Assembly (NCBI GenBank): GCA_022800625.1
Contig: JAAWQR010000005.1
Location: 19,333 to 83,332 of the forward strand
Direction of reading: 5' to 3'
DNA: 64,000 nucleotides
Origin: Clostridiales bacterium
GTDB taxonomy: Bacteria; Bacillota; Clostridia; Oscillospirales; CAG-272
Position numbers and translations under genes: made by a program. How positions within the stretch are numbered: the first letter of the stretch is position 1; each line of letters starts with the position of its first letter. A model generated the notes under the pieces. That model saw only the letters and a program-made list of their open reading frames with translations. It did no database searches and had not been told where the DNA came from. Shown piece by piece: positions 1 through 21,087 of this stretch.

Positions 1-781
1 TTATAATGCCGTAACGCGCGTTTGCTCACGCAAGACTGAAATGCCTATCATCAGCGCCGATGTCAGCGATAACGGCAGCTATGCTGTGACATATGAATCT
101 AAAGAAGCAAAATATGTTACGGAAATATATAATTCGGCGCTTGTAAAAAACATGAGCATATATAAGGACAAATATGTGGTCGATACGGCGTTGAGCGGGA
201 GCGGAAGCTGTGCTGCGATAGCGGCCGTCGGCGAGAGCGGAGATGATATTTCCTGCGAGGTAACTTTTTGTGAGACGGGTAAAGAAGAGCCGATCGGCAG
301 CTTTTCATACATCGGAGCAATTCCGCTGAGGATTGAAAGTAACGATGACGGATTCGTGCTTTTATGTGACGATGCCGTGAGGTTTTATGATAACTCGGGA
401 AAGGCTGTGTCTGAGCATAACATAAAAGGAGAAAAATCGGCGTTTTTTGATGCTTCGGGGAAAAGCTGCGTTCTCGTTTGCCGAGAAAACAGCGTCGGAC
501 TGAAAAATACGGTTTATTCGTTTGACAATAAGGGAAATATATTATATAATAGCCTTATTGAAATGAAGATCACGGGCGCGGCTGCCGCTTGCAGCACTGA
601 GGGTGCGTATGTCGGATTTTTGTCATCGGACGGCGGCGTTACGGCTCTGAAGTCTGACGGTGAGAGCGAATATGAGAGTATCAGCGGAGAAATACTCGCC
701 GTAACAGATATGGATTCAGGTGCGCTTGTATGCACTCCGACGGCGGCGTACCGTGTATTTGACGGTAAGGCTGAAAAGTAA
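1..781 (+). CDS. Hypothetical beta-rich repeat protein, 5'-truncated by window edge (possibly DUF5711-like)
   Basis: The frame of ORF 41..781 has no stop back to nt 2, so the true start lies upstream of the window. No catalytic motif recognised. The family guess rests on composition only. Confidence 0.4.
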   Translation, partial: YNAVTRVCSRKTEMPIISADVSDNGSYAVTYESKEAKYVTEIYNSALVKNMSIYKDKYVVDTALSGSGSCAAIAAVGESGDDISCEVTFCETGKEEPIGSFSYIGAIPLRIESNDDGFVLLCDDAVRFYDNSGKAVSEHNIKGEKSAFFDASGKSCVLVCRENSVGLKNTVYSFDNKGNILYNSLIEMKITGAAAACSTEGAYVGFLSSDGGVTALKSDGESEYESISGEILAVTDMDSGALVCTPTAAYRVFDGKAEK

Positions 782-872
782 ACTTTAGATCGCCGATTTG
801 ATACGGCACAAAATTTTCTTTCGTATACTAACGGGAAAAACAAAAATTCTAAAGAAAGATGTGGTCAAAATT

Positions 873-1604
873 ATGATTAGCTTAGTACTTGACGCCGTGA
901 TTATAATTATTTGTGCTTTTATTATAATAAGGGCGCTGAAAAACGGACTTATAAAGTCCGCGATGGGAATGATTAAAGGCATTTTGTCATTTATCGCGGC
1001 ATATGCTTTTACACCTGTGCTCGGAGATATAATTTATAAAAATTTTGCTCTTGAGAAAATATCGGAAGGTATACGCAAAACAATAGAATCGCTGTCCGCT
1101 ACGGAATCAGGCACGTTTAATCTTGCCAAAATGGTGGAGGATATGCCAAGTGCGCTTAAACAGATCATCGACAGATACGGCGCGTCGCAGGGAGAGCTTG
1201 AAAAAATGTGCGGCGGAATCACCGACGGCGGCGAAAAGGTTGTCTCGGACGTTGCGGATTATATTGCTCAGCCGGTTGCGGATATGATATCAAGCGCTGT
1301 AGCTTTTATAATAATTTTTATCGGTGTATTTATTGCTCTGACGCTTATTGCGATAGTCCTCGACGCTGTGTTTCACCTTCCTCTGCTGAACAGCGCAAAC
1401 AAATTGCTCGGCTTAGTATTCGGTGTAGCCGAAGCGCTTATTGTAGCCGTATTTTTGAGCAGTGCTCTCGCAGCCTTGTTTACGGCGCTTGGATCTGTAG
1501 ACTCATCTTTGTTTGGTGAACAGGTGGCTGAAAACTCATATGTTGTAAAATTCTTTTCGTCCGTTGATTTGTTCGGACTTATTGAAAATGTATTTAAAAC
1601 CTGA
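873..1604 (+). CDS. CvpA family membrane protein
   Basis: ORF 798..1604. I prefer the ATG at 873 (MISLVLDAVIIIICAFIIIRALKNGLIKS), a typical CvpA N-terminal TM helix. Further TM segments lie near the C-terminus. Confidence 0.65.
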   Translation: MISLVLDAVIIIICAFIIIRALKNGLIKSAMGMIKGILSFIAAYAFTPVLGDIIYKNFALEKISEGIRKTIESLSATESGTFNLAKMVEDMPSALKQIIDRYGASQGELEKMCGGITDGGEKVVSDVADYIAQPVADMISSAVAFIIIFIGVFIALTLIAIVLDAVFHLPLLNSANKLLGLVFGVAEALIVAVFLSSALAALFTALGSVDSSLFGEQVAENSYVVKFFSSVDLFGLIENVFKT

Positions 1605-4147: not shown

Positions 4148-4300
4148 ATTACACGTGTCAGACAATTGAAAGCTTACAGTCTTAATATTTTTGCGGAAAA
4201 CCGAAAAGGCTTTAATCAGCGGCGGAAAAATCCTGATTCGGAGCTTTACGGTTTTTTGCATATGTGCTTTGCACAAAAAATATTTTAACGGAGGAAGGTC

Positions 4301-7051
4301 ATGGCAAACCGAAGCAATGAGTGGCATCTGAGGGATGCGGAGACGGTAGCAGCAATTTTAGACAGCGATATTTATAACGGACTGCCGCCCAAAAAGATAC
4401 CGTCTCGCAGGCGGCGCGACGGGAAAAACCGTGTATGGCATGTGAAACATGCGACGGCTGCCGAATATCTTGTGAGCTGCGCCGGAGATCTTACCTCCGC
4501 CGTGCTTATTATAGCTGTTCTGACGGCGGCAGTTTTTGAAAAAACTATTCCGGCATTTTCCGTTTGCGCTATATTGGCGATAGGTATTATATTACGAATT
4601 CTTACATATGCTCTTTCAAGGCGTACCCTTGAGGGAATGGCAGAGGAGGGAATTCCCAGCGCGACTGTTCTCAGAGGCTCGGTTACACATGTAATAAGGG
4701 CTGACGAAATAGTAGTCGGCGATATAATTCTGCTTGAAGCCGGAGACATCGTTCCGTGCGACGGCAGGCTTGTCATAGGCGGAGAAGTGCGAGTAAGCGA
4801 GCGCGGAATTACAGAAAACCGCAGTACCGTTGTCAAGAGCAATACTGTCCTTGTTACGGAAAGCTCGGGGACTGAAGTGCCTTGCGAATACCGTGTTAAT
4901 ATGCTGTATGCGGGATCGGTTATTTTGTCCGGCAAGTGCAGAATGATCGCGACATCGTGCGGAGAAGGTACTCTTGTTTCAATGAGACACGGCGGTCTTT
5001 CAGTACCATCCGGAGAAAAAATTGCAGTGATCGATTCACTTCGGGATAAGTGCAGAGTCATGACGCTTGTTATGCTTGCGTCAGTTTTAATAATCAGCGC
5101 AGTTGCTGCCGCTTTCGGATACATATTCAGACGGGAGGTCGGCTTCGCCGCCGCTTTTATAAATGCGATGGCTCTTGCAGCCTCCTCCGCCGGGGCATAC
5201 CTTTTATCAGGCGTATATGCTTCCCTTGCCGTTTCCCTCAGACGTGCCGCGCGTAAAGGAAACATCCTCGGCAAGGCTGTTGTTAAGGATGCTTCGGATG
5301 TCGAGAAAGTCGCGCGTGTCAGGCGCATGATAGTATCGGGTACAGATGTGTTTAAGTCTGGAAGAGCATCATACACATCATTTTTTGAAAACGGAGAATT
5401 GAAAGAAGTACAAAAAGGCGATAAAGAGGCGGAACGAATTCTGAGACTTGTAAATTCCACGGTAAGCTTTTCGTACTCTTCATCTCTTTCGTCGGGAGAG
5501 GAAAAGCTTCCGTCAGGAAGATCATGCCTTGTCGCGAAACTTGCTGACATGGCTAAAACTCTTGATATCGACGGCGCTCCGAGGTTTACAGGCGGAGAGG
5601 TGATCGTTGATCATAAGGTGACCGATACACTGAACGGTGATTGCGACAATATAATACTTCGCCGCGGAAATTCATATGAAGCATATACAAGCGGCAGGAT
5701 CGAGGATATACTTTCTTTTTCTTCATGTTATTCAATGAACGGAAAAGAAGAGCCGCTCACGCAGGAGATGAGGGCTGAGATTCTTGCAGCTGTTCTTGAG
5801 ATAGAGAAGAGCGGAGGAGAAGTCATAGCAGCGGCACACAGGGATTCTCCGTATACGACTCTCAGGCGCGTATCGGTTCTTCAGAGCGATATGTGTTTTG
5901 ACGGATTTATCGTTTCCGAAGAGGAAACAGCAGCCTGTACCGGCGAATCGATAAATTATATGAAGGAAACAGCTACATCCGTGATACTGCTGTCTTCGCG
6001 TGCGCAAAATGATAAATATTATCTTGAAAAAGCCGGGATTGTTGAAAGCGAAACCCCTATTTTGTCATGCAGTGATGTGATAAGATCGAGTGAACTTCCG
6101 AGCGGCAGCTTTATCGTATCGGTTCCTGAATCGGGAGAAAATGGTAGACTGAACGGAAACCGTAATATGCGCCTTGCGGTTGTTAAGAAAATTACGGAAG
6201 TTTTTGATAACTGTGCAGTTATGTCAAGCGAACCTACTGATGCCGGAATGATGACGGACGGAAATGTAGGCGCGGCGCTCAGCCGTGCAGGTGAGCTTCC
6301 GATCCCTCAGACATTGAAAAGACGTTCTGTGCTGTCAGTATATCCGCGTGATAAAAAGAATACATGCGGCGGCTTTAATGAGCTTATTCAGGCTGTGTAT
6401 GCGTCAGGACTTGCCCTGTTTAACATACAAAGGTCTGTTCTTTATGTGATTTGCTCTCAGTGCGCAAAGATCGTATGCACTGTGCTGTCGGCTCTTTTCG
6501 GTATAAATGCCGTGAATGCCGCCGAAATTTTACTTCTCGGTACTGTGTTTGATTTTTCTGCATTGATTGTGATGGCATTTTCTTCCGCAAAACCGTCGGA
6601 GCTTGGAAAAAATTCGTCGTTTCCTGTTTTTCCGATTAAGAAAAGTTTGATACAAAATGCTTTATACGGTGCACTCTGCGGAGCGATCTGCTTCTCATTT
6701 ACGGCGATATCATCAAGTTTGGTTCCGCAAGGCGTAACTGACGGAGAAAATATATCGGCTTTGTGCATCGCTCTCATTTTAACGCAGCTTGTGATTTTGA
6801 GCGAGCAGCTGTCGGAAGGCTCTTTCCTCGGCAGATCTGTCGTGATAAACAGAGCATATATTATTTATTCCGTGATGACGCTTGTTTTGGCTGTTGCTCT
6901 TATGTTTTCCGTAGGTGTATGCTCGTTTCTCGGAGCTTCGCGCCCGACATGGCAAACAGCTGCCGCCGCTGTTGTATGTGCTCCGCTGATTCTTGCTTCG
7001 TCAGAGATATATAAGCGTATAAATGCCCCGAAAAGCAAAAGCGAAAAATAA
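4301..7051 (+). CDS. P-type (E1-E2) ATPase homolog with degenerate catalytic motifs (probable pseudo-ATPase)
   Basis: It has a Ca-ATPase-like N-terminus (WHL..ETVAAILDSD...GL), an A-domain-like VVGDIILLEAGDIVPCDGRL and about 10 TM segments. DKTGT is replaced by SGTDVFKS, TGES by TENRS, PEGLP by SSAGAY, and GDGxND by TDGNVGA. Confidence 0.7.
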   Translation: MANRSNEWHLRDAETVAAILDSDIYNGLPPKKIPSRRRRDGKNRVWHVKHATAAEYLVSCAGDLTSAVLIIAVLTAAVFEKTIPAFSVCAILAIGIILRILTYALSRRTLEGMAEEGIPSATVLRGSVTHVIRADEIVVGDIILLEAGDIVPCDGRLVIGGEVRVSERGITENRSTVVKSNTVLVTESSGTEVPCEYRVNMLYAGSVILSGKCRMIATSCGEGTLVSMRHGGLSVPSGEKIAVIDSLRDKCRVMTLVMLASVLIISAVAAAFGYIFRREVGFAAAFINAMALAASSAGAYLLSGVYASLAVSLRRAARKGNILGKAVVKDASDVEKVARVRRMIVSGTDVFKSGRASYTSFFENGELKEVQKGDKEAERILRLVNSTVSFSYSSSLSSGEEKLPSGRSCLVAKLADMAKTLDIDGAPRFTGGEVIVDHKVTDTLNGDCDNIILRRGNSYEAYTSGRIEDILSFSSCYSMNGKEEPLTQEMRAEILAAVLEIEKSGGEVIAAAHRDSPYTTLRRVSVLQSDMCFDGFIVSEEETAACTGESINYMKETATSVILLSSRAQNDKYYLEKAGIVESETPILSCSDVIRSSELPSGSFIVSVPESGENGRLNGNRNMRLAVVKKITEVFDNCAVMSSEPTDAGMMTDGNVGAALSRAGELPIPQTLKRRSVLSVYPRDKKNTCGGFNELIQAVYASGLALFNIQRSVLYVICSQCAKIVCTVLSALFGINAVNAAEILLLGTVFDFSALIVMAFSSAKPSELGKNSSFPVFPIKKSLIQNALYGALCGAICFSFTAISSSLVPQGVTDGENISALCIALILTQLVILSEQLSEGSFLGRSVVINRAYIIYSVMTLVLAVALMFSVGVCSFLGASRPTWQTAAAAVVCAPLILASSEIYKRINAPKSKSEK

Positions 7052-7236
7052 AATACGCACCTTAAAACAACAAAAATAAAAGTCCTTTGCATATAAAACA
7101 TAAATATGGTTTATTCGGAATAAAGTTTTATTGCAATAGGACTTGTTTTTTGTAGTATTTTGTACTATAATAATAGTTGCGAAATTGTATCAATTTATCG
7201 CTGATATTTATTATTTTTTTGAAAGGATATACTTTA

Positions 7237-8079
7237 ATGGCTGAAAACAGCAATGAATGTACGCATGACTGCTCGTCGTGCAACGCCGATTGCTCATCCA
7301 GAAATGAAATAGTTCATGAAAAACTTCATCCGGCAAGCAGTGTAAAGCATGTTATCGGGGTTGTCAGCGGAAAAGGCGGCGTCGGTAAATCTATAGTTAC
7401 GTCTATGCTGGCAGTTGCGATGAGAAGAAGAGATTTCCGCACGGCTGTGCTTGATGCCGATGTTACGGGACCTTCCGTTCCGAAGGCGTTCGGTGCTCAC
7501 GGGAAAGTCGGCAGCACAGGGGACGGACTTATTCCGATCACTACCAAAACAGGAATAGATATTATGTCCGTCAATCTTCTTTTAGATGAGGAAACAAGTC
7601 CTGTCGTATGGCGCGGACCCGTTATTGCAGGCGCGGTAAAACAGTTTTGGACAGACGTAATATGGTCTGATGAGGACTATATGTTTATCGATATGCCTCC
7701 GGGAACAGGAGATGTTCCGCTGACTGTATTTCAGTCGATTCCTCTCGACGGAATAATTATTGTTACAACTCCGCAGGAGCTCGTTTCAATGATCGTTGAA
7801 AAAGCGATTAATATGGCTTCTCTCATGAATATTCCGGTCATCGGCATCATTGAAAATATGTCATATGTAAAGTGCCCCGATTGCGGACGCCGTATAGATG
7901 TATTCGGAAAAAGCGGAACCGAGGCTCTCTGTGCAGAGCGCGGAATAAAATTCCTTGGACAGATTCCGTTTGATCCTTCTCTCGCATCGCTTTGCGACCG
8001 AGGAATTATTGAACTTTATGAAAACGACTATGTTGACGCGGCGGCTGATGCTGTGGAGAGCTTTGTCTCTGAAAAATAA
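7237..8079 (+). CDS. Mrp/NBP35 family ATP-binding Fe-S cluster carrier
   Basis: Deviant Walker A GVVSGKGGVGKS and a CPDC motif near the C-terminus. N-terminal Cys-rich CTHDCSSCNADC. The ATG at 7237 follows GAAAGGA with 9-nt spacing. The ORF-track start at 7177 is unlikely. Confidence 0.85.
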   Translation: MAENSNECTHDCSSCNADCSSRNEIVHEKLHPASSVKHVIGVVSGKGGVGKSIVTSMLAVAMRRRDFRTAVLDADVTGPSVPKAFGAHGKVGSTGDGLIPITTKTGIDIMSVNLLLDEETSPVVWRGPVIAGAVKQFWTDVIWSDEDYMFIDMPPGTGDVPLTVFQSIPLDGIIIVTTPQELVSMIVEKAINMASLMNIPVIGIIENMSYVKCPDCGRRIDVFGKSGTEALCAERGIKFLGQIPFDPSLASLCDRGIIELYENDYVDAAADAVESFVSEK

Positions 8080-8162
8080 GCTTTTTAATTGAAGCTGTAA
8101 AAAACAGCGCACATAAGCGCTGTACATAACAATCCAAAAATTATTCAGGAGGAAATATTTAT

Positions 8163-8654
8163 ATGAAGAAACCCATGACGGCAGTTTCTTTCACGGAAAC
8201 AGAAGAGCAAAAAGCGCGTCTTGAGGCGATTATTGAGGCTCACAAGGATGAAAAAGGAGCTCTGATGCCGATACTTCAGGAGGCTCAGGAAATATACGGA
8301 TATCTCCCGAAGGAGGTTCAGAAGCGTATCGCTCTCGGACTTGATATACCCGTGTCGGAGGTGTTCGGCGTTGCGACTTTTTATTCGCAGTTCTTACTTA
8401 ACCCCAAGGGACAGCATCCTGTAAGCGTATGTCTCGGAACGGCATGTTATGTTAAAGGCTCGGGACTTCTTATGGAGAAGCTTGAAGAACTTCTCGGAGT
8501 TTCAAACGGCTCTATTACCGAGGACTTAAAATTCAGTCTTGACGCTACAAGATGTATCGGCGCGTGCGGACTTGCTCCTGTTATAACTATAGGCGAGGAC
8601 GTGTACGGACGTCTTGAACCCGATCAGCTTGAAGGCATTCTTGCAAAATATTGA
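8163..8654 (+). CDS. hydC: NuoE-like thioredoxin-fold [2Fe-2S] subunit of HydABC/Hnd-type hydrogenase (HydC/HndA)
   Basis: Cys pattern VCLGTACYVKG...RCIGACGLAPV is typical of NuoE/HydC. A strong AGGAGG lies upstream. First gene of the hydrogenase cluster. Confidence 0.85.
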   Translation: MKKPMTAVSFTETEEQKARLEAIIEAHKDEKGALMPILQEAQEIYGYLPKEVQKRIALGLDIPVSEVFGVATFYSQFLLNPKGQHPVSVCLGTACYVKGSGLLMEKLEELLGVSNGSITEDLKFSLDATRCIGACGLAPVITIGEDVYGRLEPDQLEGILAKY

Positions 8655-8710
8655 TTTGAGCGGGGAAGGGCGTTTTTTTGCCGCATATAGAACGAAAGGC
8701 TGCTTAAAAA

Positions 8711-9073
8711 ATGAAAATCAACCAAATAAAAGAATTGCTTGACGCAGAGCTTCTCTGCGGAGATGAATACCTTGAAAACGACGTATACTCAGCATGCTGC
8801 AGCGATATGATGAGCGATGTTCTCGCATATGTGAAGGATCAGGGCGTTCTGCTGACAGGACTTGTAAACGCACAGGTCATCAGGACTGCAAGCATGATGG
8901 ATATGGTTTGTATAGTGTTTGTCAGAAGCAAAGTTCCGAGCGACGAAATGATCGAGCTTGCACACGAGTGCGGCATAGTCCTTATGAAAACATCGCGCCG
9001 TGCGTATGAAGCGTGCGGAGAGCTTTATTCTGCCGGACTCAGATCATCCTCGGAGGGATCGCGAAATGTCTGA
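8711..9073 (+). CDS. DRTGG domain protein (stand-alone)
   Basis: 120 aa. Typical DRTGG-type pattern ...LLCGDE...CCSDMMSDVLAY...LLTGL.NAQVIRTA. The stop overlaps the next gene's start by 8 nt. Confidence 0.6.
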   Translation: MKINQIKELLDAELLCGDEYLENDVYSACCSDMMSDVLAYVKDQGVLLTGLVNAQVIRTASMMDMVCIVFVRSKVPSDEMIELAHECGIVLMKTSRRAYEACGELYSAGLRSSSEGSRNV

Positions 9074-9491
9074 CAAGCTTACATTCCATTTTGAGGTTGA
9101 CGGTGAGAATTTTTCATCGGCCGGAGAAGCGTCGGTTATAATGAAAAAGAAGCTGAGACAGCTCGGTTTTTCACCTGATATTATCAGAAGAGTGTCGATC
9201 GCTATGTATGAAGGCGAGATCAATATGGTGATACATGCCGACGGCGGAGCGGCTGACGTGACCGTTACCGATGATGAAATAATTATCGTTCTTGCGGATC
9301 ACGGACCGGGGATACCCGATGTTTCTCTTGCGATGCAGGAGGGATATTCAACAGCGCGCGATAATATAAGGGCGCTTGGCTTCGGTGCGGGTATGGGTTT
9401 GCCGAACATGAAAAAATATACGGACAGCATGGAAATTGAGACTGAGCTCGGTGTCGGAACGACGATAACAATGAAGGTCAGTCTGAATTAA
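9066..9491 (+). CDS. Stand-alone GHKL (HATPase_c) protein, RsbW/SpoIIAB-like serine-kinase size class
   Basis: I prefer the ATG at 9066 (MSDKLTFHFEV) after GGAGGGA. GHKL boxes EGEINMVIHA, DHGPGI and GFGAGMGL are present. No DHp or receiver domain. Confidence 0.7.
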   Translation: MSDKLTFHFEVDGENFSSAGEASVIMKKKLRQLGFSPDIIRRVSIAMYEGEINMVIHADGGAADVTVTDDEIIIVLADHGPGIPDVSLAMQEGYSTARDNIRALGFGAGMGLPNMKKYTDSMEIETELGVGTTITMKVSLN

Positions 9492-9511
9492 GCCGTGCCG
9501 CGAGGTGGGTC

Positions 9512-10852
9512 ATGAAAAACTATAAACATTCGGTTTCACTTGACGTCACAAAATGCAAAGGATGCACAGCATGCCTCAAACGATGTCCAACTGAGGCAAT
9601 ACGTATACGCGACGGACACGCAAAGATAAATTCGGAGCGGTGTATCGACTGCGGAGAGTGCATAAAGGTTTGTCCGCATCGGGCAAAGAGAGCTACGCAC
9701 GATTCGGCGGACGATATGCAAAAGTATAAATTTACAGTTGCACTGCCGGCTCCCGCTCTGTACGGTCAGTTCAATAATATGACGAGCATCGATTACATAA
9801 TCGACGGATTGTACAAGATCGGCTTTGACTATGTCTTTGAGGTAGCCTGCGCGGCGGAGATCGTTTCCGCATATACGAGAATATATCTCGGGAGACAGGA
9901 AGTAAAACGCCCTGTGATAAGCTCTGCATGTCCCGTTATTACGAGAATGATAGGAATGAATTTCCCGTATCTGACAGATCAGATAATGCCGATACTTCCT
10001 CCGATAGACGTTGCGGCAACATCAGCGCTTGATCACGTATTGGAAGAGCATCCCGAACTTACACGCGAGGATATAGGAATATTCTTTATTTCCCCGTGCC
10101 CTGCAAAGGTAAGCTATGTGAAAAACGGCTTTGCGGGAGAAAAAAACAATATTGACCGTGTTATCTCGGTCAGAGACATATATTTCAGACTTCTTGATGT
10201 TATGAAGCATGATGAGGCTCCCGAATACAGCGCAGATTCGGGAATGGTCGGGATAGGTTGGGCAGCGACCGGAGGAGAATCCTCCGCCGTGTTCAACGAG
10301 CGCTACCTTGCTGCCGACGGAATTGAAAACTGTATTCGAGTACTGGAACAAATAGATAACGAGGACTTCACGGATCTTGACTTTATTGAGCTTAATGCGT
10401 GCAGCGGCGGATGCGTCGGCGGAGCTATGACGGTTGCCAACGCATACATAGCGCAGGCAAGGCTTCAGTCGCTTAAGCGATATCTTCCCGTGTCGCCTAA
10501 CCGACCTGAGGGCGGAGAAATACCTGATAAGTTTTTCTCTGACGGTGAAGTTAAATATCAGACGGGGTATAAGTTATCTGAAAACAGAGTCGAAGCTATG
10601 CGCATGATGAGCGAGATTGAAGATATTACGGCAAGTTTACCGGGTATCGACTGCGGTTCATGCGGTGCGCCGACGTGTATGGCGTTTGCCGAGGACATCG
10701 TTAAAAATGAAACAAACGCTGATGAATGTACAATCATAATGCGTCAGCTGTTTCATCAAAGTCTTGATCAGCGAAAGGCTAAAATCATCTCAGACACTAT
10801 ATCGAGGCAGTCGAAAAAAACTGATGAGAAGTCAGAAGGTGAAACAAATTAA
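9512..10852 (+). CDS. HydS-like putative sensory [FeFe] hydrogenase paralog (2x[4Fe-4S] ferredoxin + H-domain + C-terminal 4-Cys Fe-S domain)
   Basis: N-terminal CKGCTACLKRCP and CIDCGECIKVCP. H-cluster motifs are SSACP (for TSCCP), SPCPAK (for MPCxxK) and ELNACSGGCVGG (for ExMxCxxGCxxG). C-terminal CGSCGAPTC...EC motif. Confidence 0.8.
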   Translation: MKNYKHSVSLDVTKCKGCTACLKRCPTEAIRIRDGHAKINSERCIDCGECIKVCPHRAKRATHDSADDMQKYKFTVALPAPALYGQFNNMTSIDYIIDGLYKIGFDYVFEVACAAEIVSAYTRIYLGRQEVKRPVISSACPVITRMIGMNFPYLTDQIMPILPPIDVAATSALDHVLEEHPELTREDIGIFFISPCPAKVSYVKNGFAGEKNNIDRVISVRDIYFRLLDVMKHDEAPEYSADSGMVGIGWAATGGESSAVFNERYLAADGIENCIRVLEQIDNEDFTDLDFIELNACSGGCVGGAMTVANAYIAQARLQSLKRYLPVSPNRPEGGEIPDKFFSDGEVKYQTGYKLSENRVEAMRMMSEIEDITASLPGIDCGSCGAPTCMAFAEDIVKNETNADECTIIMRQLFHQSLDQRKAKIISDTISRQSKKTDEKSEGETN

Positions 10853-10855
10853 CGC

Positions 10856-11242
10856 ATGACTGTAGGCTGTTCACCGAGTGTTGCTCAGTCTGCGGTGCAG
10901 AAAGGCAGGTTTGCTTTGAAAACAGATGCAGTTGTTAAATCTCTCGGACTGAAGGCACTCGTAGGAGATGTTCCCGATGAATTTTCGGGAGTTTATGCAG
11001 GAGATCTGCTCAGCCGTGCGATGAGCCATGTGACTGAAGGCGATCTTTGGATCACTATCATGAATAATGTCAATGTCATTGCCGTTGCAAGCCTTACGGA
11101 AGCTGCCGCAGTTATTTTGGCTGAGGGTGTTGTTCTTCCCGAGGACGTGAAAAACGCTGCCGCGGAAAAAAATATTACAGTATTGTCGTCAGATGATACT
11201 GTGTATGATATCTGCCGCGGTATTGCGGTCTCTCTCTCATGA
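10856..11242 (+). CDS. DRTGG domain protein (second copy)
   Basis: Similar size and pattern to 8711..9073 (LKALVGDVPDE...YAGDLLSRAMSHV...). The start is either ATG 10856 or in-frame TTG 10916. The 3' end overlaps the PHP gene by 4 nt. Confidence 0.55.
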   Translation: MTVGCSPSVAQSAVQKGRFALKTDAVVKSLGLKALVGDVPDEFSGVYAGDLLSRAMSHVTEGDLWITIMNNVNVIAVASLTEAAAVILAEGVVLPEDVKNAAAEKNITVLSSDDTVYDICRGIAVSLS

Positions 11243-11970
11243 ACAGCTATAATTATGATCTGCATATCCATTCCTGTCTTTCGCCATGTGCTGACGATGA
11301 TATGACTCCTGCGAATATTGCGGGAATGGCTCATTTGCAGGGACTTAATATTGTGGCTCTTACAGATCATAATTCGTCAAAAAACTGCCCTGCATTTTTT
11401 GCACATGCGAAAAAATACGGCATAGTCCCGATAGCGGGAATGGAGCTTACGACTGCTGAGGACATACATGTTATCTGCCTTTTTGATACGCTTGACTCAG
11501 CAATGGAATTTGACGGTATTGTTGAAAGAAGGCTCATGTATGTTAAGAACCGCCCCGATATATTCGGATGTCAGCTCATCATGAATGAAAATGACGAGAC
11601 TGTGGGTGAGATCGAGCCGCTTCTCATAAACGCGACGGATATAGACCTTGACGAGGCATATAAAATATGTACTTCAATGGGAGGCGCATGCTATCCCGCT
11701 CATATTGACAGGGATTCGGGCGGTATGATATCCATTCTCGGAAATTTTCCCGATAATCCGAAATATGCGGCATTTGAACTTAATTTTAAGGAATCTCTTG
11801 AAGAATACATGGCAAGATTTCCCGTGACGGAAAAAATGCAGTTTGTCGTGTCATCCGATGCGCATAATCTCTGGAAAATATCAGATGCAGGCAATACATT
11901 ATCCCTTGATGATGAGCCGTACAGTTCTCAGAAAGTCAGAGAATCCCTTATAAAATATTTAAGGGGATAA
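11239..11970 (+). CDS. PHP domain phosphoesterase
   Basis: N-terminal YDLHIHSCLSPCADD and ALTDHNS His/Asp metal-binding motifs, with a later SSDAH motif. 243 aa. Confidence 0.75.
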   Translation: MNSYNYDLHIHSCLSPCADDDMTPANIAGMAHLQGLNIVALTDHNSSKNCPAFFAHAKKYGIVPIAGMELTTAEDIHVICLFDTLDSAMEFDGIVERRLMYVKNRPDIFGCQLIMNENDETVGEIEPLLINATDIDLDEAYKICTSMGGACYPAHIDRDSGGMISILGNFPDNPKYAAFELNFKESLEEYMARFPVTEKMQFVVSSDAHNLWKISDAGNTLSLDDEPYSSQKVRESLIKYLRG

Positions 11971-12006
11971 GTAAATCTCACGACAGTCAAGCGGACGGAG
12001 GTACAG

Positions 12007-12585
12007 ATGGAAGAATTTTCGCTTTATGTTCTTGATATCACTATGAATTCCGTACGTGCAGGCGCCGATAAAATCGATGTGACGCTGGAAGAGAAAAAAT
12101 CTGACGGCGGGGAGCGTATGTTGTATTTTACAGTAAGCGATAACGGCTGCGGAATGAGCGGGGAAATGGTAAAGCGTCTTGCCGATCCGTTCTTTACGAC
12201 AAGAAAGACACGATCCGTAGGACTCGGTGTGCCTTTTCTTAAGATGCTTGCCGAGCAAACTGGCGGAGGTCTTGAAATCGTTTCAAGGTCCAAAGAAGAG
12301 CATCCCGACGATCACGGGACAACGCTTAAAGCAAGCTTCGGAATAGAGCATATAGATTTTATTCCGCTCGGCGATCTTGAGGGCACGTTTATAACTCTGA
12401 TACAGGGAAGTCCCGATATCGATTTTACATTTACTTATATAACTCCGACAGGAAAGGTACATCTTGCTTGCAGTGAGATTCGCGAAATACTCGGAGGGGA
12501 TATTTCACTCGCTGAGTTTGAAGTACTTGAATGGATCAGGGGTTATCTGAGAGAAAGCTATGAAGCTTTAAAACAAAATAAATAA
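12007..12585 (+). CDS. Stand-alone GHKL (HATPase_c) ATP-binding protein (second copy)
   Basis: N-box-like ITMNSVRAGA, G1 DNGCGM and G2 GLGVPFL. No DHp, receiver or DNA-binding domain. Confidence 0.7.
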   Translation: MEEFSLYVLDITMNSVRAGADKIDVTLEEKKSDGGERMLYFTVSDNGCGMSGEMVKRLADPFFTTRKTRSVGLGVPFLKMLAEQTGGGLEIVSRSKEEHPDDHGTTLKASFGIEHIDFIPLGDLEGTFITLIQGSPDIDFTFTYITPTGKVHLACSEIREILGGDISLAEFEVLEWIRGYLRESYEALKQNK

Positions 12586-12609
12586 TAAATCCTGAAAGGA
12601 AATTATCAT

Positions 12610-12981
12610 ATGAAATCTCTTGAAGAATTGATGGCGATCAAAGAAAAGATGCAGGACAAGGTTGCTCTGCGTCACGCATCAGACGAAGTTCGCGTAGTAG
12701 TCGGCATGGCTACATGCGGTATTGCAGCAGGCGCACGTCCTGTACTTAACGCTTTTGTCGAAGGCGTATCCGAAGCAGGACTTGCAAGCCGTGTTACGGT
12801 TACTCAGACTGGCTGCATAGGTATATGTCAGTATGAGCCTGTTGTCGAAATATTTGAAAAAGACAAAGAAAAAGTCACTTATGTAAAAATGACGGCTGAA
12901 AAAGCCCGTGAAGTCATTGAAAAGCATATTAAGGGCGGAAATCCTGTAGCCGAATACACGATCGGCAACGCTAAAATATAA
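12610..12981 (+). CDS. Small thioredoxin-like [2Fe-2S] ferredoxin subunit (HndB-like)
   Basis: GMATCGIAAGA...TGCIGICQYEP pattern. 123 aa. Lies directly upstream of the NuoF-like gene. Confidence 0.75.
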   Translation: MKSLEELMAIKEKMQDKVALRHASDEVRVVVGMATCGIAAGARPVLNAFVEGVSEAGLASRVTVTQTGCIGICQYEPVVEIFEKDKEKVTYVKMTAEKAREVIEKHIKGGNPVAEYTIGNAKI

Positions 12982-13001
12982 CTTAGGAGGAAATATAGGC
13001 T

Positions 13002-14798
13002 ATGTTTCGTATACATGCATTGATTTGCGGCGGTACAGGCTGTACCTCCTCAGGCAGTATGTCGGTCAAGGAGGCTCTTGAAAAAGAACTCGCGGCAAAA
13101 GGACTTGAGGAAGAGGTAAAAATTGTACAGACGGGATGTTTCGGACTTTGTGCGCTCGGTCCGATCATGATCGTATATCCGGAGGGAACATTCTACAGCA
13201 TGGTAAAGGCTGAGGATATCCCCGAGATCGTTGAGGAGCACTTCCTCAAAGGTCGTCCTGTTGAGCGCCTTGTTTATAACGAGGCTGCAAAGGATCATCC
13301 GGCAGAGGCTGTAGCGTCTCTTAATGATACTGCTTTCTATAAAAAGCAGAAGAGAGTTGCGCTCCGCAACTGCGGCGTTATCAACCCTGAAAATATCGAT
13401 GAGTATATAGCTATGGACGGTTATTTTGCTCTCGCCAAGGTTTTGAAGGAGATGACTCCCGATGATGTTATCAAAACCGTTCTTGACTCAGGACTTCGCG
13501 GACGCGGAGGCGGCGGATTCCCGACGGGAAGAAAGTGGCAGTTTGCAAAGGCGAGTGTATCTGATAAAAAGTATGTCGTATGTAATGCCGACGAGGGCGA
13601 CCCGGGAGCATTCATGGACCGTTCGGTTCTCGAGGGTGACCCGCATGCAGTTCTTGAAGCAATGGCTATCGCAGGCTATGCTATCGGAGCTGACGAAGGT
13701 TGGATATATGTCCGTGCCGAGTATCCGATCGCTGTAAGAAGACTTAATATCGCAATAGAGCAGGCAAGAGAATACGGAATTCTCGGAAAGGGAATTTTCG
13801 GTACAGACTTCAATTTTGATATTCATATTCGTCTCGGTGCAGGCGCGTTCGTTTGCGGTGAGGAAACAGCTCTTCTTACATCAATTGAAGGTAACCGCGG
13901 TGAGCCGCGTCCCCGTCCGCCTTTCCCGGCAGTTAAGGGGCTTTGGGGCAAGCCGACCATTATCAATAATGTAGAGACATACGCAAATATTGCTCAGATC
14001 ATTCTGAACGGCGCTGATTGGTTTGCTTCAATGGGTACGGAGACGTCCAAGGGAACAAAGGTATTTGCTCTCGGCGGTAAGATTAAAAATACAGGTCTTG
14101 TTGAGATCCCGATGGGTACAACTCTCCGCGAGATCGTAGAAGAGATCGGCGGCGGCGTTCCGAACGGTAAGAAGTTTAAGGCGGCTCAGACGGGCGGTCC
14201 GTCAGGCGGATGTATTCCGGCTTCTCTCATTGATACGCCTATCGACTATGACAACCTCATAAAGATCGGATCAATGATGGGTTCAGGCGGACTTATCGTA
14301 ATGGACGAGGATACTTGTATGGTTGACCTTGCTAAGTTCTTCCTTGAGTTCACTGTAGACGAGTCTTGCGGAAAGTGTGCGCCTTGCCGTATCGGTACGG
14401 TTCGACTTCTTGAGATTCTGAATAAGATCACATCAGGCAACGGTGAGATGGAAGACCTTGATAAGCTTGAGGAACTTGCAAACTACATAAAGAGCGCTTC
14501 TCTCTGCGGTCTCGGTCAGACAGCTCCGAACCCCGTTCTTTCAACACTTCGTTACTTCAGAGACGAGTATATCGCTCATATCAGAGATAAAAAATGTCCG
14601 GCGGGCGTATGTAAGAAGTTGCTTTCATTTGAGATCGATCCCGAAAAATGTAAGGGATGCACTCTCTGTGCAAGACAGTGCCCAGCAGGCGCTATCACGG
14701 GTAAGGTTAAAGAAGCACATGTTATCGATACCGAGAAGTGCGTAAAATGCGGCGCTTGTATGGAAAAATGTAAGTTCGGTGCAATTTCCAAGAAATAA
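13002..14798 (+). CDS. hydB: NuoF-like FMN/NAD(H)-binding subunit of bifurcating-type hydrogenase (HydB/HndC)
   Basis: N-terminal [2Fe-2S] (CGGTGC...GCFGLCALGP), GRGGGGFPTGRKW FMN/NADH motif, ESCGKCAPCR [4Fe-4S], and C-terminal 2x ferredoxin CKGCTLCARQCP / CVKCGACMEKC. Confidence 0.92.
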   Translation: MFRIHALICGGTGCTSSGSMSVKEALEKELAAKGLEEEVKIVQTGCFGLCALGPIMIVYPEGTFYSMVKAEDIPEIVEEHFLKGRPVERLVYNEAAKDHPAEAVASLNDTAFYKKQKRVALRNCGVINPENIDEYIAMDGYFALAKVLKEMTPDDVIKTVLDSGLRGRGGGGFPTGRKWQFAKASVSDKKYVVCNADEGDPGAFMDRSVLEGDPHAVLEAMAIAGYAIGADEGWIYVRAEYPIAVRRLNIAIEQAREYGILGKGIFGTDFNFDIHIRLGAGAFVCGEETALLTSIEGNRGEPRPRPPFPAVKGLWGKPTIINNVETYANIAQIILNGADWFASMGTETSKGTKVFALGGKIKNTGLVEIPMGTTLREIVEEIGGGVPNGKKFKAAQTGGPSGGCIPASLIDTPIDYDNLIKIGSMMGSGGLIVMDEDTCMVDLAKFFLEFTVDESCGKCAPCRIGTVRLLEILNKITSGNGEMEDLDKLEELANYIKSASLCGLGQTAPNPVLSTLRYFRDEYIAHIRDKKCPAGVCKKLLSFEIDPEKCKGCTLCARQCPAGAITGKVKEAHVIDTEKCVKCGACMEKCKFGAISKK

Positions 14799-14818
14799 GA
14801 AAGGAAACGACATTACAC

Positions 14819-16558
14819 ATGGATATGATGAATATAAAGATCAACGGCGCGGATTATTCAGTTCCTGCCGGAATCACTGTACTTGAAGCTGCAAAGTATG
14901 CCGGAATCGATATTCCGACGCTTTGCTACCTCAAGGATATAAATGAAATCGGTGCATGCAGACTTTGCCTTGTTGAAGTAAAAGGCGCAAGGGGGCTTGT
15001 AACCTCATGCGTATATCCCATTAACGAGGGCATGGAGATATTTACCAATACAGAAAAAGTCAGACGTGCCCGCAAGACAAATATTGAGCTTGTTCTTTCA
15101 GCTCATAAGAAGAAATGTCTCTCGTGTATCAGAAGCACGAACTGTGAGCTTCAGAAGCTTGCACGCGACTACGGTGCAGATGAGGATTACTTCAAAAGCG
15201 ATGATGACAGAGAATATCCGATCGATGTTTCCTCTCCGTCTATCATTCGTGATAACAACAAATGTATTCTTTGCCGCCGCTGCGTTGCTGCATGTAATAA
15301 ACTTCAGGGAATCGGAGCTATCGGTACTCTGAACCGCGGTTACGACACAGAGATCGGAAGCCAGTTCGGTCTTCCGCTTGCTGAGACTTCCTGCATCAAC
15401 TGCGGACAGTGCATAGTTGCATGTCCTGTAGGTGCTCTCTATGAGAAGGATGACACACAGAAGATCATGGAAGCTATCAACGATCCTTCAAAGCACGTTG
15501 CTATCTGTTGCGCTCCGTCAGTCAGAGCTACTATCGGAGAGTGCTTCGGCATGGCTCCCGGCACTGACGCTGAGGGAAAGATGGTTGCAGCTCTAAAGAA
15601 GCTCGGCTTTGACGGCGTATACGACATGAACTTTACAGCTGACCTCACTATCATGGAGGAGGCCACAGAGTTCCTTGGCAGAGTTAAGAACGGCGGACCG
15701 CTTCCGCTTATTACCTCATGCTCGCCCGGATGGGTCAAGTTCTGCGAGCATTACTTCCCCGAAATGACGGAGAATCTTTCAACATGTAAGTCTCCTCAGC
15801 AGATGTTCGGTGCGGTTTACAAGACATACTTCGCTGAAAAGATGGGCATTGATCCTAAGGATATCGTATTTGTATCCGCTATTCCCTGTACAGCTAAGAA
15901 GTTTGAGGTAACACGCGACGGTCAGGACGTTGACGGAATGCCGGGAGTTGATATAGCAGTTACAACCCGCGAGCTCGGACGTATGATAGACGCTGCCGGA
16001 ATCGAATTTACAGCTCTTGCTGACGAGAAGTTTGATACACCTATCGACATCGGATCAGGTGCGGGCGCTATCTTCGGCGCTACAGGCGGAGTTATGGAGG
16101 CAGCTCTCAGAACTGCCGCTGAGGTTATTGAAGGAAAGCCGCTTGAAAAGCTTGATTTTGAGGAAGTACGCGGTACTGACGGCATTAAGTTTGCAACATA
16201 CAAGCTCGGCGATATTGAACTTAACGTTGCTGTAGCTTCAGGTACTGCAAATGCAGCTAAGCTCTTGAAGGGCGTACAGGACGGAACATACAACGTTCAG
16301 TTTATCGAGATCATGGCTTGTCCCGGCGGATGCGTAAACGGCGGCGGTCAGCCGACTCAGCCGGCGTCTGTCAGAAATTCTGTTGATCTTAAGAAGGTTC
16401 GCGCTGAGGTTCTTTACACAGCCGATCGCAATCTTGATCTTCGCAAATCACACGAAAACTCGATTATTAAGCAGATATATGATGAGTTCCTCGGAGAACC
16501 GAACAGCCACAAGGCTCATGAGCTTCTCCACACTCATTACGTAAAGCGCGGTCTGTAA
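14819..16558 (+). CDS. hydA: [FeFe] hydrogenase catalytic subunit (HydA/HndD, NADH-dependent group A type)
   Basis: N-terminal [2Fe-2S] and His-ligated cluster, then CILCRRCVAACN and CINCGQCIVACP. H-domain motifs are TSCSPGW, IPCTAKKFE and EIMACPGGCVNGGGQP. Confidence 0.92.
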   Translation: MDMMNIKINGADYSVPAGITVLEAAKYAGIDIPTLCYLKDINEIGACRLCLVEVKGARGLVTSCVYPINEGMEIFTNTEKVRRARKTNIELVLSAHKKKCLSCIRSTNCELQKLARDYGADEDYFKSDDDREYPIDVSSPSIIRDNNKCILCRRCVAACNKLQGIGAIGTLNRGYDTEIGSQFGLPLAETSCINCGQCIVACPVGALYEKDDTQKIMEAINDPSKHVAICCAPSVRATIGECFGMAPGTDAEGKMVAALKKLGFDGVYDMNFTADLTIMEEATEFLGRVKNGGPLPLITSCSPGWVKFCEHYFPEMTENLSTCKSPQQMFGAVYKTYFAEKMGIDPKDIVFVSAIPCTAKKFEVTRDGQDVDGMPGVDIAVTTRELGRMIDAAGIEFTALADEKFDTPIDIGSGAGAIFGATGGVMEAALRTAAEVIEGKPLEKLDFEEVRGTDGIKFATYKLGDIELNVAVASGTANAAKLLKGVQDGTYNVQFIEIMACPGGCVNGGGQPTQPASVRNSVDLKKVRAEVLYTADRNLDLRKSHENSIIKQIYDEFLGEPNSHKAHELLHTHYVKRGL

Positions 16559-16979: not shown

Positions 16980-17621
16980 ATGAAAATTAAAAGAGAAGAT
17001 CTATTGCTTTATGGAATAACAGACAGGTCGCGCCTTGGGGGAGCTGAGCTTTACGAGCATGTCAAAATGGCTCTTGACGGCGGTGTGACATTTTTGCAGC
17101 TCAGAGAAAAAAATCGTGAAAAAGATCAGGTTCTCGAAGAAGCGTGCCGAATAGGCGAGCTTTGCAGGGAATATAATGTTCCGTTTATAATAAACGATGA
17201 TCCTGAAATTGCTCGGCTGTCGGGTGCGGACGGAGTTCATGTCGGTCAGCGGGATATGGAGGCGGGACGCGTCCGCGAGATACTCGGAGAAGATAAAATC
17301 ATCGGGGTAACTGCACGTACGGTTGAACAGGCGATTGCTGCCGAGCGCAGCGGAGCGGATTACCTCGGCTGCGGCGCGGTTTTCCCTACAGGCACAAAAT
17401 CGGATGCGGTAGAGCTTGATCATAACACTTTGCGCAAGATATGCGAAGCTGTAAATATTCCTGTCATTGCCATCGGCGGAATTTGTGAAAACAATATTAT
17501 GGAACTTAAAGGCAGCGGAATATGCGGTGTTGCCGTTATCGGCGCGATTTTCGGAAGTGATGATATTAAATCTGCATCTGCGAGGCTTAAAGTTTTTGCA
17601 GAAAAGATGACAAGCTCATGA
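16980..17621 (+). CDS. thiE: Thiamine-phosphate synthase
   Basis: LYGITDR...VTFLQLREK...FIINDD...ADGVHVGQRD...IAIGGI motifs typical of ThiE. Confidence 0.9.
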   Translation: MKIKREDLLLYGITDRSRLGGAELYEHVKMALDGGVTFLQLREKNREKDQVLEEACRIGELCREYNVPFIINDDPEIARLSGADGVHVGQRDMEAGRVREILGEDKIIGVTARTVEQAIAAERSGADYLGCGAVFPTGTKSDAVELDHNTLRKICEAVNIPVIAIGGICENNIMELKGSGICGVAVIGAIFGSDDIKSASARLKVFAEKMTSS

Positions 17622-19782: not shown

Positions 19783-21087
19783 ATGAGAAACTATACAACA
19801 CAAATGGACGCTGCGAAGCGCGGTATCATAACACCTGAAATGAAAGCTGTCGCTGAGAAGGAATACAGAACAGAAGAGGAAATCAGAGATTTGGTAGCAA
19901 AAGGGCAGGTTGCTATATGTGCTAATAAGCTGCATGAATGTATAGATCCGAACGGAGTAGGATCAATGCTGAGAACAAAAATCAATGTAAACTTGGGCAT
20001 TTCAAAGGACTGCAAGGATTATGATATTGAAATGCAGAAGGTTATGGCGGCAGTTGATATGGGAGCTGAGGCAATAATGGATCTCTCATCTCATGGAAAT
20101 ACACAGCCGTTCCGCAGAAAGCTGATCTCTGAATGCCCTGCAATGATAGGAACAGTTCCCGTATATGACAGTGTTATACACTATCAGAGAGATTTGGCAA
20201 CTCTTACAGCTAAGGATTTTATAGATGTAGTAAGACTTCATGCAGAGGACGGAGTAGATTTTGTCACACTGCATTGCGGCATCACAAGAAAAACGATTGA
20301 GCAGATAAAGAAGCACAAGAGAAAAATGAATATTGTATCTCGCGGCGGGTCACTTGTTTTTGCTTGGATGAGCATGACGGGTGAGGAGAATCCTTTCTAC
20401 GAGTATTATGATGAAATACTTGAAATTTGCAGAGAATATGACGTTACAATTTCTCTCGGAGACGCATGCCGACCGGGATGCCTTGCAGATGCGAGCGACG
20501 TTTGTCAAATCGAAGAGCTTGTGAGACTCGGCGAGCTGACAAAGCGCGCATGGGAAAAAGATGTTCAGGTTATGGTTGAAGGACCCGGGCACATGCCGCT
20601 TGATCAGATAGAAGCCAACATGAAATTACAGCAGACAATCTGCATGGGTGCACCTTTCTATGTTCTCGGACCGATCGTCACTGATATTGCTCCCGGATAC
20701 GATCATATTACATCGGCTATCGGAGGAGCTATCGCAGCGTCAGCGGGCGCCGCATTCCTGTGCTATGTAACGCCTGCCGAGCATCTCGCGCTTCCGAATG
20801 TTGAGGATGTAAAGCAGGGAATCATCGCGTCACGTATAGCGGCCCATGCTGCGGATATCGCAAAGCATATTCCCCACGCAAGAGATATTGACGATGAGAT
20901 GGCAGATGCAAGACGTACTTTTGACTGGGAGCGTCAGTGGGAGTGCTCGATCGATCCCGAGACAGCAAAGCGCATCCGTGATGAGAGAAAGCCTGAGGTC
21001 GAAGAAAGCTGTTCCATGTGCGGTAAATTCTGTGCGGTAAGAAGCATGAATAAAGCGCTGAACGACGAGTATATAGATATACTGTAA
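19783..21087 (+). CDS. thiC: Phosphomethylpyrimidine synthase (radical SAM)
   Basis: 434 aa. N-terminal [16 protein letters not shown] and C-terminal CSMCGKFC cluster motif. Confidence 0.92.

Follow-up and report, generated by a model that had tools for sequence, protein, structure and literature searches.

A family of catalytically degenerate P2-type ATPase homologues encoded beside a ClpE-like unfoldase in uncultured gut Clostridia

Introduction

P-type ATPases are defined by their aspartyl-phosphate chemistry. In SERCA-type pumps, a Glu in membrane helix M5 and an Asp in M6 coordinate one and the same ion, and a basic residue is found at the ion site in the P3A H+-ATPases (M5 Arg/M6 Asp), the gastric H,K-ATPase (Lys791) and ZntA (Lys693–Asp714). 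Here we describe a gene in a 64,000-nucleotide stretch of DNA from a Clostridiales bacterium (contig JAAWQR010000005.1; the whole of this stretch is referred to as the window). As judged from its sequence, the 916-residue product keeps an intact P2-type (Ca-pump-like) ATPase fold but would be unable to form the aspartyl-phosphate, and we refer to this putative pseudoenzyme as the pseudo-ATPase. Lacking that intermediate, it could not pump at the expense of ATP.

The closest described relatives are the Listeria Ca2+-ATPase LMCA1 (PDB 6zhf and 9euq), which is the best PDB sequence match (phmmer, E 4e-24, residues 26–819), and SPCA1 and SERCA, which provide the best folds. The pseudo-ATPase resembles these pumps in its N-terminal segment, in the pattern GD...GD..P.D.R of the actuator (A) domain, in the folds of the nucleotide-binding (N) and phosphorylation (P) domains, in its ten transmembrane (TM) helices and in the M6 Asp. 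It differs from them in lacking DKTGT, TGES, PEGL, KGA, TGD and GDGxN, and in carrying Lys or Arg in place of the M5 Glu and Gly in place of the M6 Asn. Moreover, conservation in its family is centred on the A rather than the P domain, and it reaches the cutoff of no curated NCBIfam P-type model. A basic M5 residue that would face the M6 Asp, though not necessarily in exact register with the P3A Arg, is a feature in common with the P3A ATPases, the H,K-ATPase and ZntA. These are active pumps in which the charge works in the catalytic cycle, whereas the pseudo-ATPase family has no such cycle.

The only precedent that we found for non-catalytic P-type ATPase folds is that of the P4-ATPase modules of alveolate guanylate cyclases (P4GC), some lineages of which have an altered or missing DKTGT and A-domain Glu but an intact fold (PMC13466520). 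The P4GC modules belong to the eukaryotic P4 (flippase) class, form part of a cyclase fusion and are degenerate in certain lineages only, whereas the proteins considered here are stand-alone, bacterial and P2-type, and the whole family is degenerate. In the searchable literature we found no description of a bacterial family of pseudo- or inactive P-type ATPases, and nothing relevant for DUF5711, the FUPA families or membrane partners of ClpE; inactive members are not mentioned in the searched passages of a review of open questions on P-type ATPases (PMC10654040). The family of dead pumps is apparently undescribed so far.

Results

The reading frame and fold of a P2-type pump are retained

An earlier, sequence-only reading of the window had described the gene as a long and intact open reading frame (ORF) with an N-terminal cation-ATPase segment. 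In agreement with this, the frame is uninterrupted over 916 codons (Table 1), and the segment is matched above cutoff by the Pfam profile Cation_ATPase_N (34.5 bits). Of the three other profiles named for checking in that reading, E1-E2_ATPase matches above cutoff (73 bits, residues 119–319), Cation_ATPase_C remains below it (21.2 against 27.3 bits) and Hydrolase (PF00702) gives no match even at E ≤ 1. All matches to the NCBIfam P-type ATPase models are weak, 7- to 30-fold under the cutoffs (for example, 66 against 611 bits). The protein is a 100% match to GenBank MCI9449094.1, ‘cation-transporting P-type ATPase [Clostridiales bacterium]’, and its relatives MCQ2455976.1, MBR7032450.1 and MBE6559851.1 bear the same name. 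An antisense ORF of 392 aa (4372–5550, minus strand), which lies wholly within the gene, is most likely a by-product of composition.

When modelled by AlphaFold from an 80-sequence family alignment, the four domains were predicted with confidence (predicted local distance difference test 90.8, predicted template-modelling score 0.91). The model comprises the N-terminal segment, a β-rich A domain, the N and P domains and ten TM helices, in accordance with the ten or so helices proposed earlier. The comparison with SERCA and LMCA1 that had been suggested was extended to the PDB using Foldseek. The model resembles E1 states, with TM-scores of 0.76 for human SPCA1 (8iwp, CaE1), 0.75 for SERCA1a-phospholamban (4kyt, E1-like) and 0.72–0.74 for Na,K-ATPase E1 states, against about 0.55 for various E2 states; the E1-like state of the model is the choice of the predictor and no evidence for the resting state. 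From AlphaFold, Foldseek and HHalign alike, the architecture is that of the P2 class, with A, N and P domains and a membrane (M) domain of ten TM helices.

The catalytic motifs are lost

In order to place each motif, we used four alignments: a phmmer alignment to LMCA1, two MAFFT sets in which six real pumps were aligned with 38 or with 200 relatives (44 and 206 sequences respectively), and an HHalign comparison of an 80-sequence family profile with a 28-sequence profile of real pumps. The HHalign result is a single collinear alignment of 858 columns (Prob 100%, E 2.7e-84), and the four alignments are concordant at all motifs bar a one-residue register at the phosphorylation site. Here the phospho-Asp column corresponds to G347 (HHalign and the 44-sequence set) or to S346 (phmmer and the 206-sequence set), and never to Asp. 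The F-K-S-G that follows the remnant of this site is a family motif. In the A domain, which contains VVGDIILLEAGDIVPCDGRL at residues 138–157, TGES is replaced column by column by T171-E172-N173-R174, so that the dephosphorylating Glu becomes Asn; among 200 family members T171 is kept in 159, while the Glu column is Asn in 121 and Glu in only 8. PEGL in M4 is replaced by G298-A299-Y300-L301, with A299 in the Glu column. The M4 Glu is present in 145/200 members (72%), as S-E-(F/Y)-L, and is lost in the subclade of the window protein.

The nucleotide-handling and hinge motifs are similarly altered. KGA is replaced by S464-G465-R466, in which the Lys is gone (its column is C, R or S across the 200 members) and only G465 is kept, and the equivalents of the adenine-stacking Phe and Arg of the N domain are both lost. 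TGD becomes S565 followed by S566, with S565 at the Thr column, and the motif-III Lys column is R624. GDGVNDAPAL reads S642-S-E-P-T-D647-A-G-M-M651, with S642-S643 at the G-D of the hinge; the column of the first hinge Asp is R, S or K in the family. The sole survivor of GDGxND is D647 (nt 6239–6241), the last hinge Asp and the equivalent of SERCA D707. The set of residues that defines the chemistry of a P2-class ATPase (DKTGT, TGES, HAD motifs II–IV with KGA, and the PEGL/ion-site set) is therefore not present in this protein.

These results largely uphold the motif assignments of the sequence-only reading. The phospho-Asp had been taken to be Gly within IVSGTDVFKS, which is the HHalign register (the other register, S346, likewise lacks an Asp), and the replacement of TGES by TENRS, that of PEGLP by SSAGAY and the complete absence of DKTG from the 916 residues were all reproduced. 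The hinge, however, had been assigned to TDGNVGAALS (652–661), a segment that aligns to K-x-ADIGVAMG; since the hinge aligns to 641–651, the assignment was one motif too far downstream. The statement that every catalytic signature is degenerate is correct in that all motifs are lost but overlooks that D647 is kept and that R624 and S565 occupy the columns of the motif-III Lys and the TGD Thr. A literal TGES tetrapeptide does occur at residues 547–550 (nt 5939–5950), in a P-domain helix that aligns with ‘..ARET..’ in real pumps. It has no homology to the A-domain TGES and could mislead motif scans; as it is not conserved in the family and sits in the P domain, we regard it as a chance match.

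We considered whether the protein might still act as a pump or phosphatase by means of non-canonical residues, for example D349 or the Asp found in some of its relatives. An Asp is located at or next to the phosphorylation column in 60/200 members (around 30%), including the closest relatives (...SDVSAFKSG), and a ‘ghost’ of the HAD site can be discerned in the family, with S or T in 150/200 members where TGD has its Thr, R or K in 132/200 at the motif-III Lys column and D or E in 175/200 at that of D647. However, the Asp is not conserved, the phospho-Asp column being P, S or C or (in the adjacent column, by register) D, G or K, and where present it stands without the K-T-G-T context and without other HAD residues. 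Also missing are the Glu of TGES, the Lys of KGA, the first Asp and the Asn of the hinge and the residues that bind adenine; the P domain has specifically lost its excess conservation (see below), and the window protein itself has Gly or Ser at the site. Residual catalysis of this kind is very unlikely. A catalytic Asp elsewhere in the protein was ruled out, given the lack of a Hydrolase match at E ≤ 1 and of any shifted DKTGT in HHalign; a conserved DKTGT-like Asp at another position, which the sequence-only reading had named as evidence against itself, appears in none of the profile alignments.

A large family in uncultured gut Clostridia

A word-indexed search identified around 85 clusters of relatives (23–49% identity, approximately 880–1030 aa), none of them with a precomputed PF00702 match, and real pumps, which carry PF00702, enter the match list only from E 6.5e-26. 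An exhaustive search yielded 146 clusters at 50% identity with E ≤ 1e-30. Of 260 proteins retrieved, 224 belong to the group, all without DKTG; the string is present in two others, P0123 and P0158, but at non-homologous positions. Overall, there are at least 200 full-length homologues with 19–49% identity and an open frame of about 900 aa, and the catalytic set is missing in all of them. The pseudo-ATPase thus belongs to a large family, monophyletic in appearance, that is found in uncultured gut Clostridia (Oscillospiraceae and relatives) and lacks the HAD/P-type catalytic set throughout. All 33 species-representative genomes with a family member are uncultured metagenome-assembled genomes (MAGs), labelled Oscillospiraceae, ‘Ruminococcus sp.’, Eubacteriales or Clostridia. 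Their sources include horse faeces and yak rectum, and one isolate name points to chicken; none of the listed members P0001–P0085 comes from UniRef. A subgroup of proteins of about 1000 aa (P0045, P0048, P0058, P0062, P0064 and P0065) has no Cation_ATPase_N match.

The family is under purifying selection

In comparison with a 98%-identical strain, the gene shows 19 synonymous and 19 non-synonymous differences, giving a dN/dS ratio (omega) of 0.32, whereas omega for the adjacent clp gene is 0.055. None of the 17 strain-level amino-acid changes falls within residues 1–408. Synonymous sites are saturated in most between-species pairs, so that the usable evidence consists of relative dN and a few pairs. 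In all 66 between-species pairs, dN of the pseudo-ATPase is three to four times that of Clp and Mrp. Where its own dS could be estimated, omega between species is 0.17–0.46, values that are overestimates because dS is saturated; in the L016/L019 pair, dS of the neighbouring clp is about 1.2 and dN of the pseudo-ATPase is 0.27. Hence dN lies well below saturation while synonymous sites are saturated, and the frame is intact between orthologues. Since hundreds of lineages maintain an open 2.7-kb frame at saturated distances, this evolution cannot be neutral. The family is under purifying selection, with an omega of about 0.2–0.3, although it evolves faster than its neighbours. Both hallmarks of a pseudoenzyme, homology to an enzyme with loss of the catalytic residues and purifying selection across lineages, are found here.

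The faster evolution relative to the neighbours and the only moderately low omega between strains might suggest a recently inactivated pump gene, decaying with an accidentally open frame. Set against this are frames of about 900 aa that are intact in more than 200 lineages with saturated synonymous sites, a strong Shine-Dalgarno sequence, a confident fold prediction, residues invariant in this family in its own right and the lack of strain-level changes in the first 408 residues. We consider a decaying pseudogene scarcely credible. The proposal in the sequence-only reading that the gene is maintained for a non-pump role, and not decaying in its orthologues, is therefore supported by the intact relatives, the dN/dS values between strains and between species, the confident fold and the lack of a displaced DKTGT-like Asp.

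Constraint has moved to the A domain and the membrane core

To compare the distribution of constraint, the identity of each domain was divided by the overall mean, for family pairs of 45–80% identity and for 28 real pumps. The most constrained domain is the P domain in real pumps (1.36–1.40, against 0.94–0.98 in the family) and the A domain in the family (1.38, against 1.19 in real pumps). Family values also exceed those of real pumps in M1-M2 (1.21 against 0.97) and the N-terminal segment (1.13 against 0.80); the corresponding figures are 1.15 and 1.15 for M5-M6, 0.87 and 0.78 for the N domain, and 0.69 and 0.64 for M7-M10. The P domain has specifically lost its surplus of constraint, as expected if phosphoryl transfer no longer takes place, and constraint has shifted to the A domain together with the N-terminal segment and the M1-M2/M5-M6 core. 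Invariant residues of the A domain are P119, R125, G140, D141, G148, D154, R156, E167, K179, N200 and G211.

The sharpest family-specific residues are charged and located within the membrane domain or at its mouth (Table 1). The K723 column in M5 is R in 180 and K in 18 of 200 family members, as compared with E in 22/28 and R/K in 0/28 real pumps. In M6, the G747 column is Gly in 198/200 members against Asn in 26/28 real pumps, while D751, the equivalent of the universal P2 ion-binding Asp, is Asp in 198/200. Because the M5 Glu and M6 Asp share an ion in SERCA-type pumps, we infer by homology that the Arg/Lys and Asp of the family face each other, and they may form a built-in ion pair.

An alternative use for these residues would be in a device that passes ions or protons without ATP (a passive leak, uniporter or channel) or senses cations or pH, in which an acidic funnel (D63, E111 and, in most members, the M4 Glu) leads to the Arg/Lys-Asp site and no link to Clp is required. 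The top family-specific residues are indeed charged (D63, E111, the M4 Glu in 145/200, the M5 R/K and the M6 Asp), the AlphaFold model is like the cytoplasm-open E1 states, and P3A H+-ATPases handle protons via their M5 Arg/M6 Asp pair. On the other hand, a tethered cation facing an Asp is more simply read as a permanently filled, non-conducting site, the M4 Glu is lost in the subclade of the window protein, and the N and P domains, which are dispensable for a channel, are of full size. On balance such a device seems unlikely, though it merits consideration.

A ClpE-like gene is located directly upstream

The window is ordinary chromosome, with rpoB, rpoC, ftsK, murE-like, thiC and asparagine synthase genes. 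The pseudo-ATPase and its neighbours are arranged in the order DUF5711 (truncated at the start of the window), CvpA, Clp/Hsp100, pseudo-ATPase, Mrp/ApbC and a sensory-hydrogenase-like cluster. ClpE is an Hsp100/Clp ATPase with an N-terminal zinc finger in Bacillus and Lactococcus. The neighbouring Clp protein resembles it in having an N-terminal zinc ribbon of the form CxxC...CxxC (conserved across 21 aligned homologues), no Clp_N domain, two AAA+ modules (Walker A at 183 and 520, Walker B at 250 and 588) and a VGF tripeptide at 644, where ClpP-binding loops lie and docking is predicted. We take this to be the architecture of ClpE and assign the protein provisionally to the ClpE-type Hsp100s on these sequence features; it scores below every NCBIfam Clp equivalog cutoff. 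To our knowledge, no ClpE is paired with a P-type ATPase-like gene.

Among 37 loci with a family member in public assemblies, the clp gene is located directly 5' of that member, on the same strand, in 33 of the 34 with upstream sequence. Approached from the Clp side, the pseudo-ATPase is directly 3' in 3/3 loci, these being three examined among the 120 closest Clp homologues listed (≥ 67% identity), so that the pairing holds in 36 of 37 loci from both sets together. It persists down to 21–23% identity of the pseudo-ATPase and across at least three types of downstream neighbour: Mrp and the hydrogenase cluster in most loci, PRC-rpsB-tsf in L004/L005 and a glycyl-radical enzyme in L091. The spacer between the two genes is 5–51 nt in six loci, 153 nt in the window and 1.2 kb in L092 (region 6001–12528), where the gap between clp and a family member of about 1000 aa contains no called gene.

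The remaining locus is L038 (6324–8332), in which the family member overlaps the end of a gene for a 225-aa stand-alone HAD_2 hydrolase by 4 nt. A soluble HAD enzyme here adjoins a P-type fold whose own HAD site is gone. The L038 copy breaks off after about 444 aa, at stop codons close to the end of the contig.

DUF5711 orthologues are about 400–430 aa long and have one N-terminal TM helix, probably followed by an extracytoplasmic β-rich domain. Since DUF5711 and CvpA (1–1604 in the window, 3570–5599 in L001) always precede the Clp/pseudo-ATPase pair, the products of the block are three membrane proteins and an AAA+ unfoldase. An anti-phage defence system was considered and rejected: PADLOC gave no match for the pseudo-ATPase, CvpA or DUF5711, and for Clp generic AAA+ matches only.

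The neighbourhood also bears on the idea that the protein is a regulatory or structural pseudo-subunit of a P-type ATPase that is catalytically active and has its gene elsewhere in the genome. Modulation of a live enzyme by a dead paralogue is a common theme among pseudoenzymes. The retention of all four domains and of a pump-like membrane core would suit such a subunit, the structural matches include oligomeric P-type ATPases (such as the MgtA dimer 8uy7), and the family is derived from P2-type pumps, which are common in Clostridia. Nevertheless, no active P-type ATPase gene is located nearby in any of about 40 loci, no conserved interface was identified and no data point specifically to hetero-oligomerization. 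We therefore regard this role as doubtful.

Features of the window

Coordinates of the gene, its motifs and its neighbours are collected in Table 1. The long hairpin in the clp/pseudo-ATPase spacer looks like a terminator or attenuator; Rfam gave no match in the spacer.

Table 1. Features of the pseudo-ATPase gene and its surroundings, in window coordinates
Feature	Residues	Nucleotides	Strand	Basis or remark
DUF5711 gene, 3' part, cut by window start		1..781	+	Conserved upstream block
CvpA-family multi-pass membrane protein		798..1604	+	Conserved upstream block
ClpE-like class-I AAA+ unfoldase, 774 aa		1823..4147	+	Directly 5' of pseudo-ATPase
Long hairpin with U tract (A tract on other flank)		4193..4262	+	In 153-nt clp/pseudo-ATPase spacer; minimum free energy −36.8 kcal/mol, z −2.6
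Shine-Dalgarno GGAGG		4290..4294	+	6 nt 5' of pseudo-ATPase ATG; read from sequence
Pseudo-P-type ATPase gene, 916 aa		4301..7051	+	ORF, Pfam, LMCA1 alignment, AlphaFold, HHalign
Cation_ATPase_N segment	8–74	4322..4522	+	Pfam; family-conserved W8-H9, G27-L28, R36, G41, N43
D63, cytoplasmic start of M1	63	4487..4489	+	Family-specific, 183/200
E111, cytoplasmic end of M2	111	4631–4633	+	Family-specific, 165/200
A domain	118–240	4652..5020	+	Best-conserved domain of the family
TENRS loop, replaces TGES	171–175	4811..4825	+	Alignments
M4 segment SSAGAYL, replaces (A)xPEGL	295–300 (SSAGAY)	5183..5203	+	Alignments
Phosphorylation-site remnant IVSGTDVFKS	344–353	5330–5359	+	Four alignments
N-domain-like fold	366–545	5396..5935	+	Alignments, AlphaFold
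True hinge equivalent MSSEPTDAGMM	641–651	6221..6253	+	Alignments
K723, M5	723	6467..6469	+	Column of ion-binding Glu
G747...D751, M6	747–751	6539..6553	+	Alignments

The conserved cluster 3' of Mrp/ApbC (8163–16558, plus strand) opens with the gene for a 2Fe-2S thioredoxin-like ferredoxin, followed by those for a DRTGG protein, a HATPase_c protein and an Fe-hydrogenase-like protein that has an FeS domain at its C terminus, and then by a second DRTGG gene and a PHP gene. In orthologous loci, NuoF-like and HydA-like genes come next. The cluster resembles a sensory [FeFe]-hydrogenase regulatory module beside a bifurcating hydrogenase. The sole Rfam match in the window is a full-length thiamine pyrophosphate (TPP) riboswitch (RF00059, 16807–16911, plus strand, 58 bits), located 5' of a 213-aa ORF (16980–17621), with the ThiC gene further 3' at 19783–21087. 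Between 26001 and 30000 the G+C content is 0.37–0.38, as compared with about 0.45 elsewhere, and this region, which contains an S41 peptidase-like ORF and a gene for a G5/3D-domain protein, may be a differently composed, cell-wall-related segment.

Discussion

The existence and shape of the family described here are solid, and would surprise a specialist; with regard to function, we offer a hypothesis. The role that we favour, and hold to be reasonably probable, is that of a non-pumping membrane protein whose ion site is self-neutralized and whose probable partner is the Clp unfoldase. In this model, the Arg/Lys-Asp pair would serve as a built-in counter-ion that fills or neutralizes the ion site, leaving the pseudo-ATPase as a stable, non-transporting membrane module with, at most, a capacity to sense ions or protons. 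The conserved cytoplasmic headpiece, and chiefly the A domain, could then provide a docking or regulatory platform, most likely for the ClpE-like AAA+ unfoldase whose gene lies directly 5' of it, and CvpA and DUF5711, the other two membrane proteins of the block, might also take part. The pseudo-ATPase might in this way tether or regulate Clp-dependent unfolding or proteolysis at the membrane. We infer the Clp-partner role from the gene pairing.

Several observations weigh against this proposal. The whole ecfA-ecfA'-ecfT-truA-DUF5711-cvpA-clp block is equally syntenic, so that adjacency to clp constitutes modest functional evidence and may partly reflect conservation of gene order within one bacterial order. 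Clp is 65–81% identical where the pseudo-ATPase is 28–57% identical, and hence their rates are not in step. In the window, the terminator-like hairpin parts clp from the pseudo-ATPase, although the spacers in most other loci are too short to hold such a hairpin, and the family member in L038 follows the HAD_2 hydrolase gene rather than clp. With regard to the membrane site, contact between K723 and D751 is proposed from homology to the ion-coordinating Glu and Asp of SERCA and not from coordinates, and since the subclade of the window protein is without the M4 Glu that most of the family keeps, the argument is weaker for this protein.

A more far-reaching version of the Clp-partner proposal envisages a new component of membrane signalling or proteostasis that has abandoned its own ATP chemistry. 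Here the Arg-Asp pair would act as a switch that senses a proton or cation, and the A domain would recruit or gate the ClpE-type unfoldase together with CvpA and DUF5711, the energy-consuming step being outsourced to a separate ATPase. We put this forward as a speculative and, in its full form, improbable scheme.

One practical consequence concerns annotation. Since dead pumps are named ‘cation-transporting P-type ATPase’ in GenBank, metabolic and transport reconstructions of these MAGs over-count ion pumps. More broadly, a deep and widespread bacterial lineage that keeps the entire P-type fold without its chemistry indicates that the scaffold has a second, ATP-independent use, and the family offers a natural experiment in the function of the A domain and the M5/M6 ion site when no catalytic cycle takes place. 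Furthermore, the near-invariant pairing with a ClpE-like gene raises the possibility of a proteolysis module linked to the membrane in abundant, uncultured gut Clostridia.

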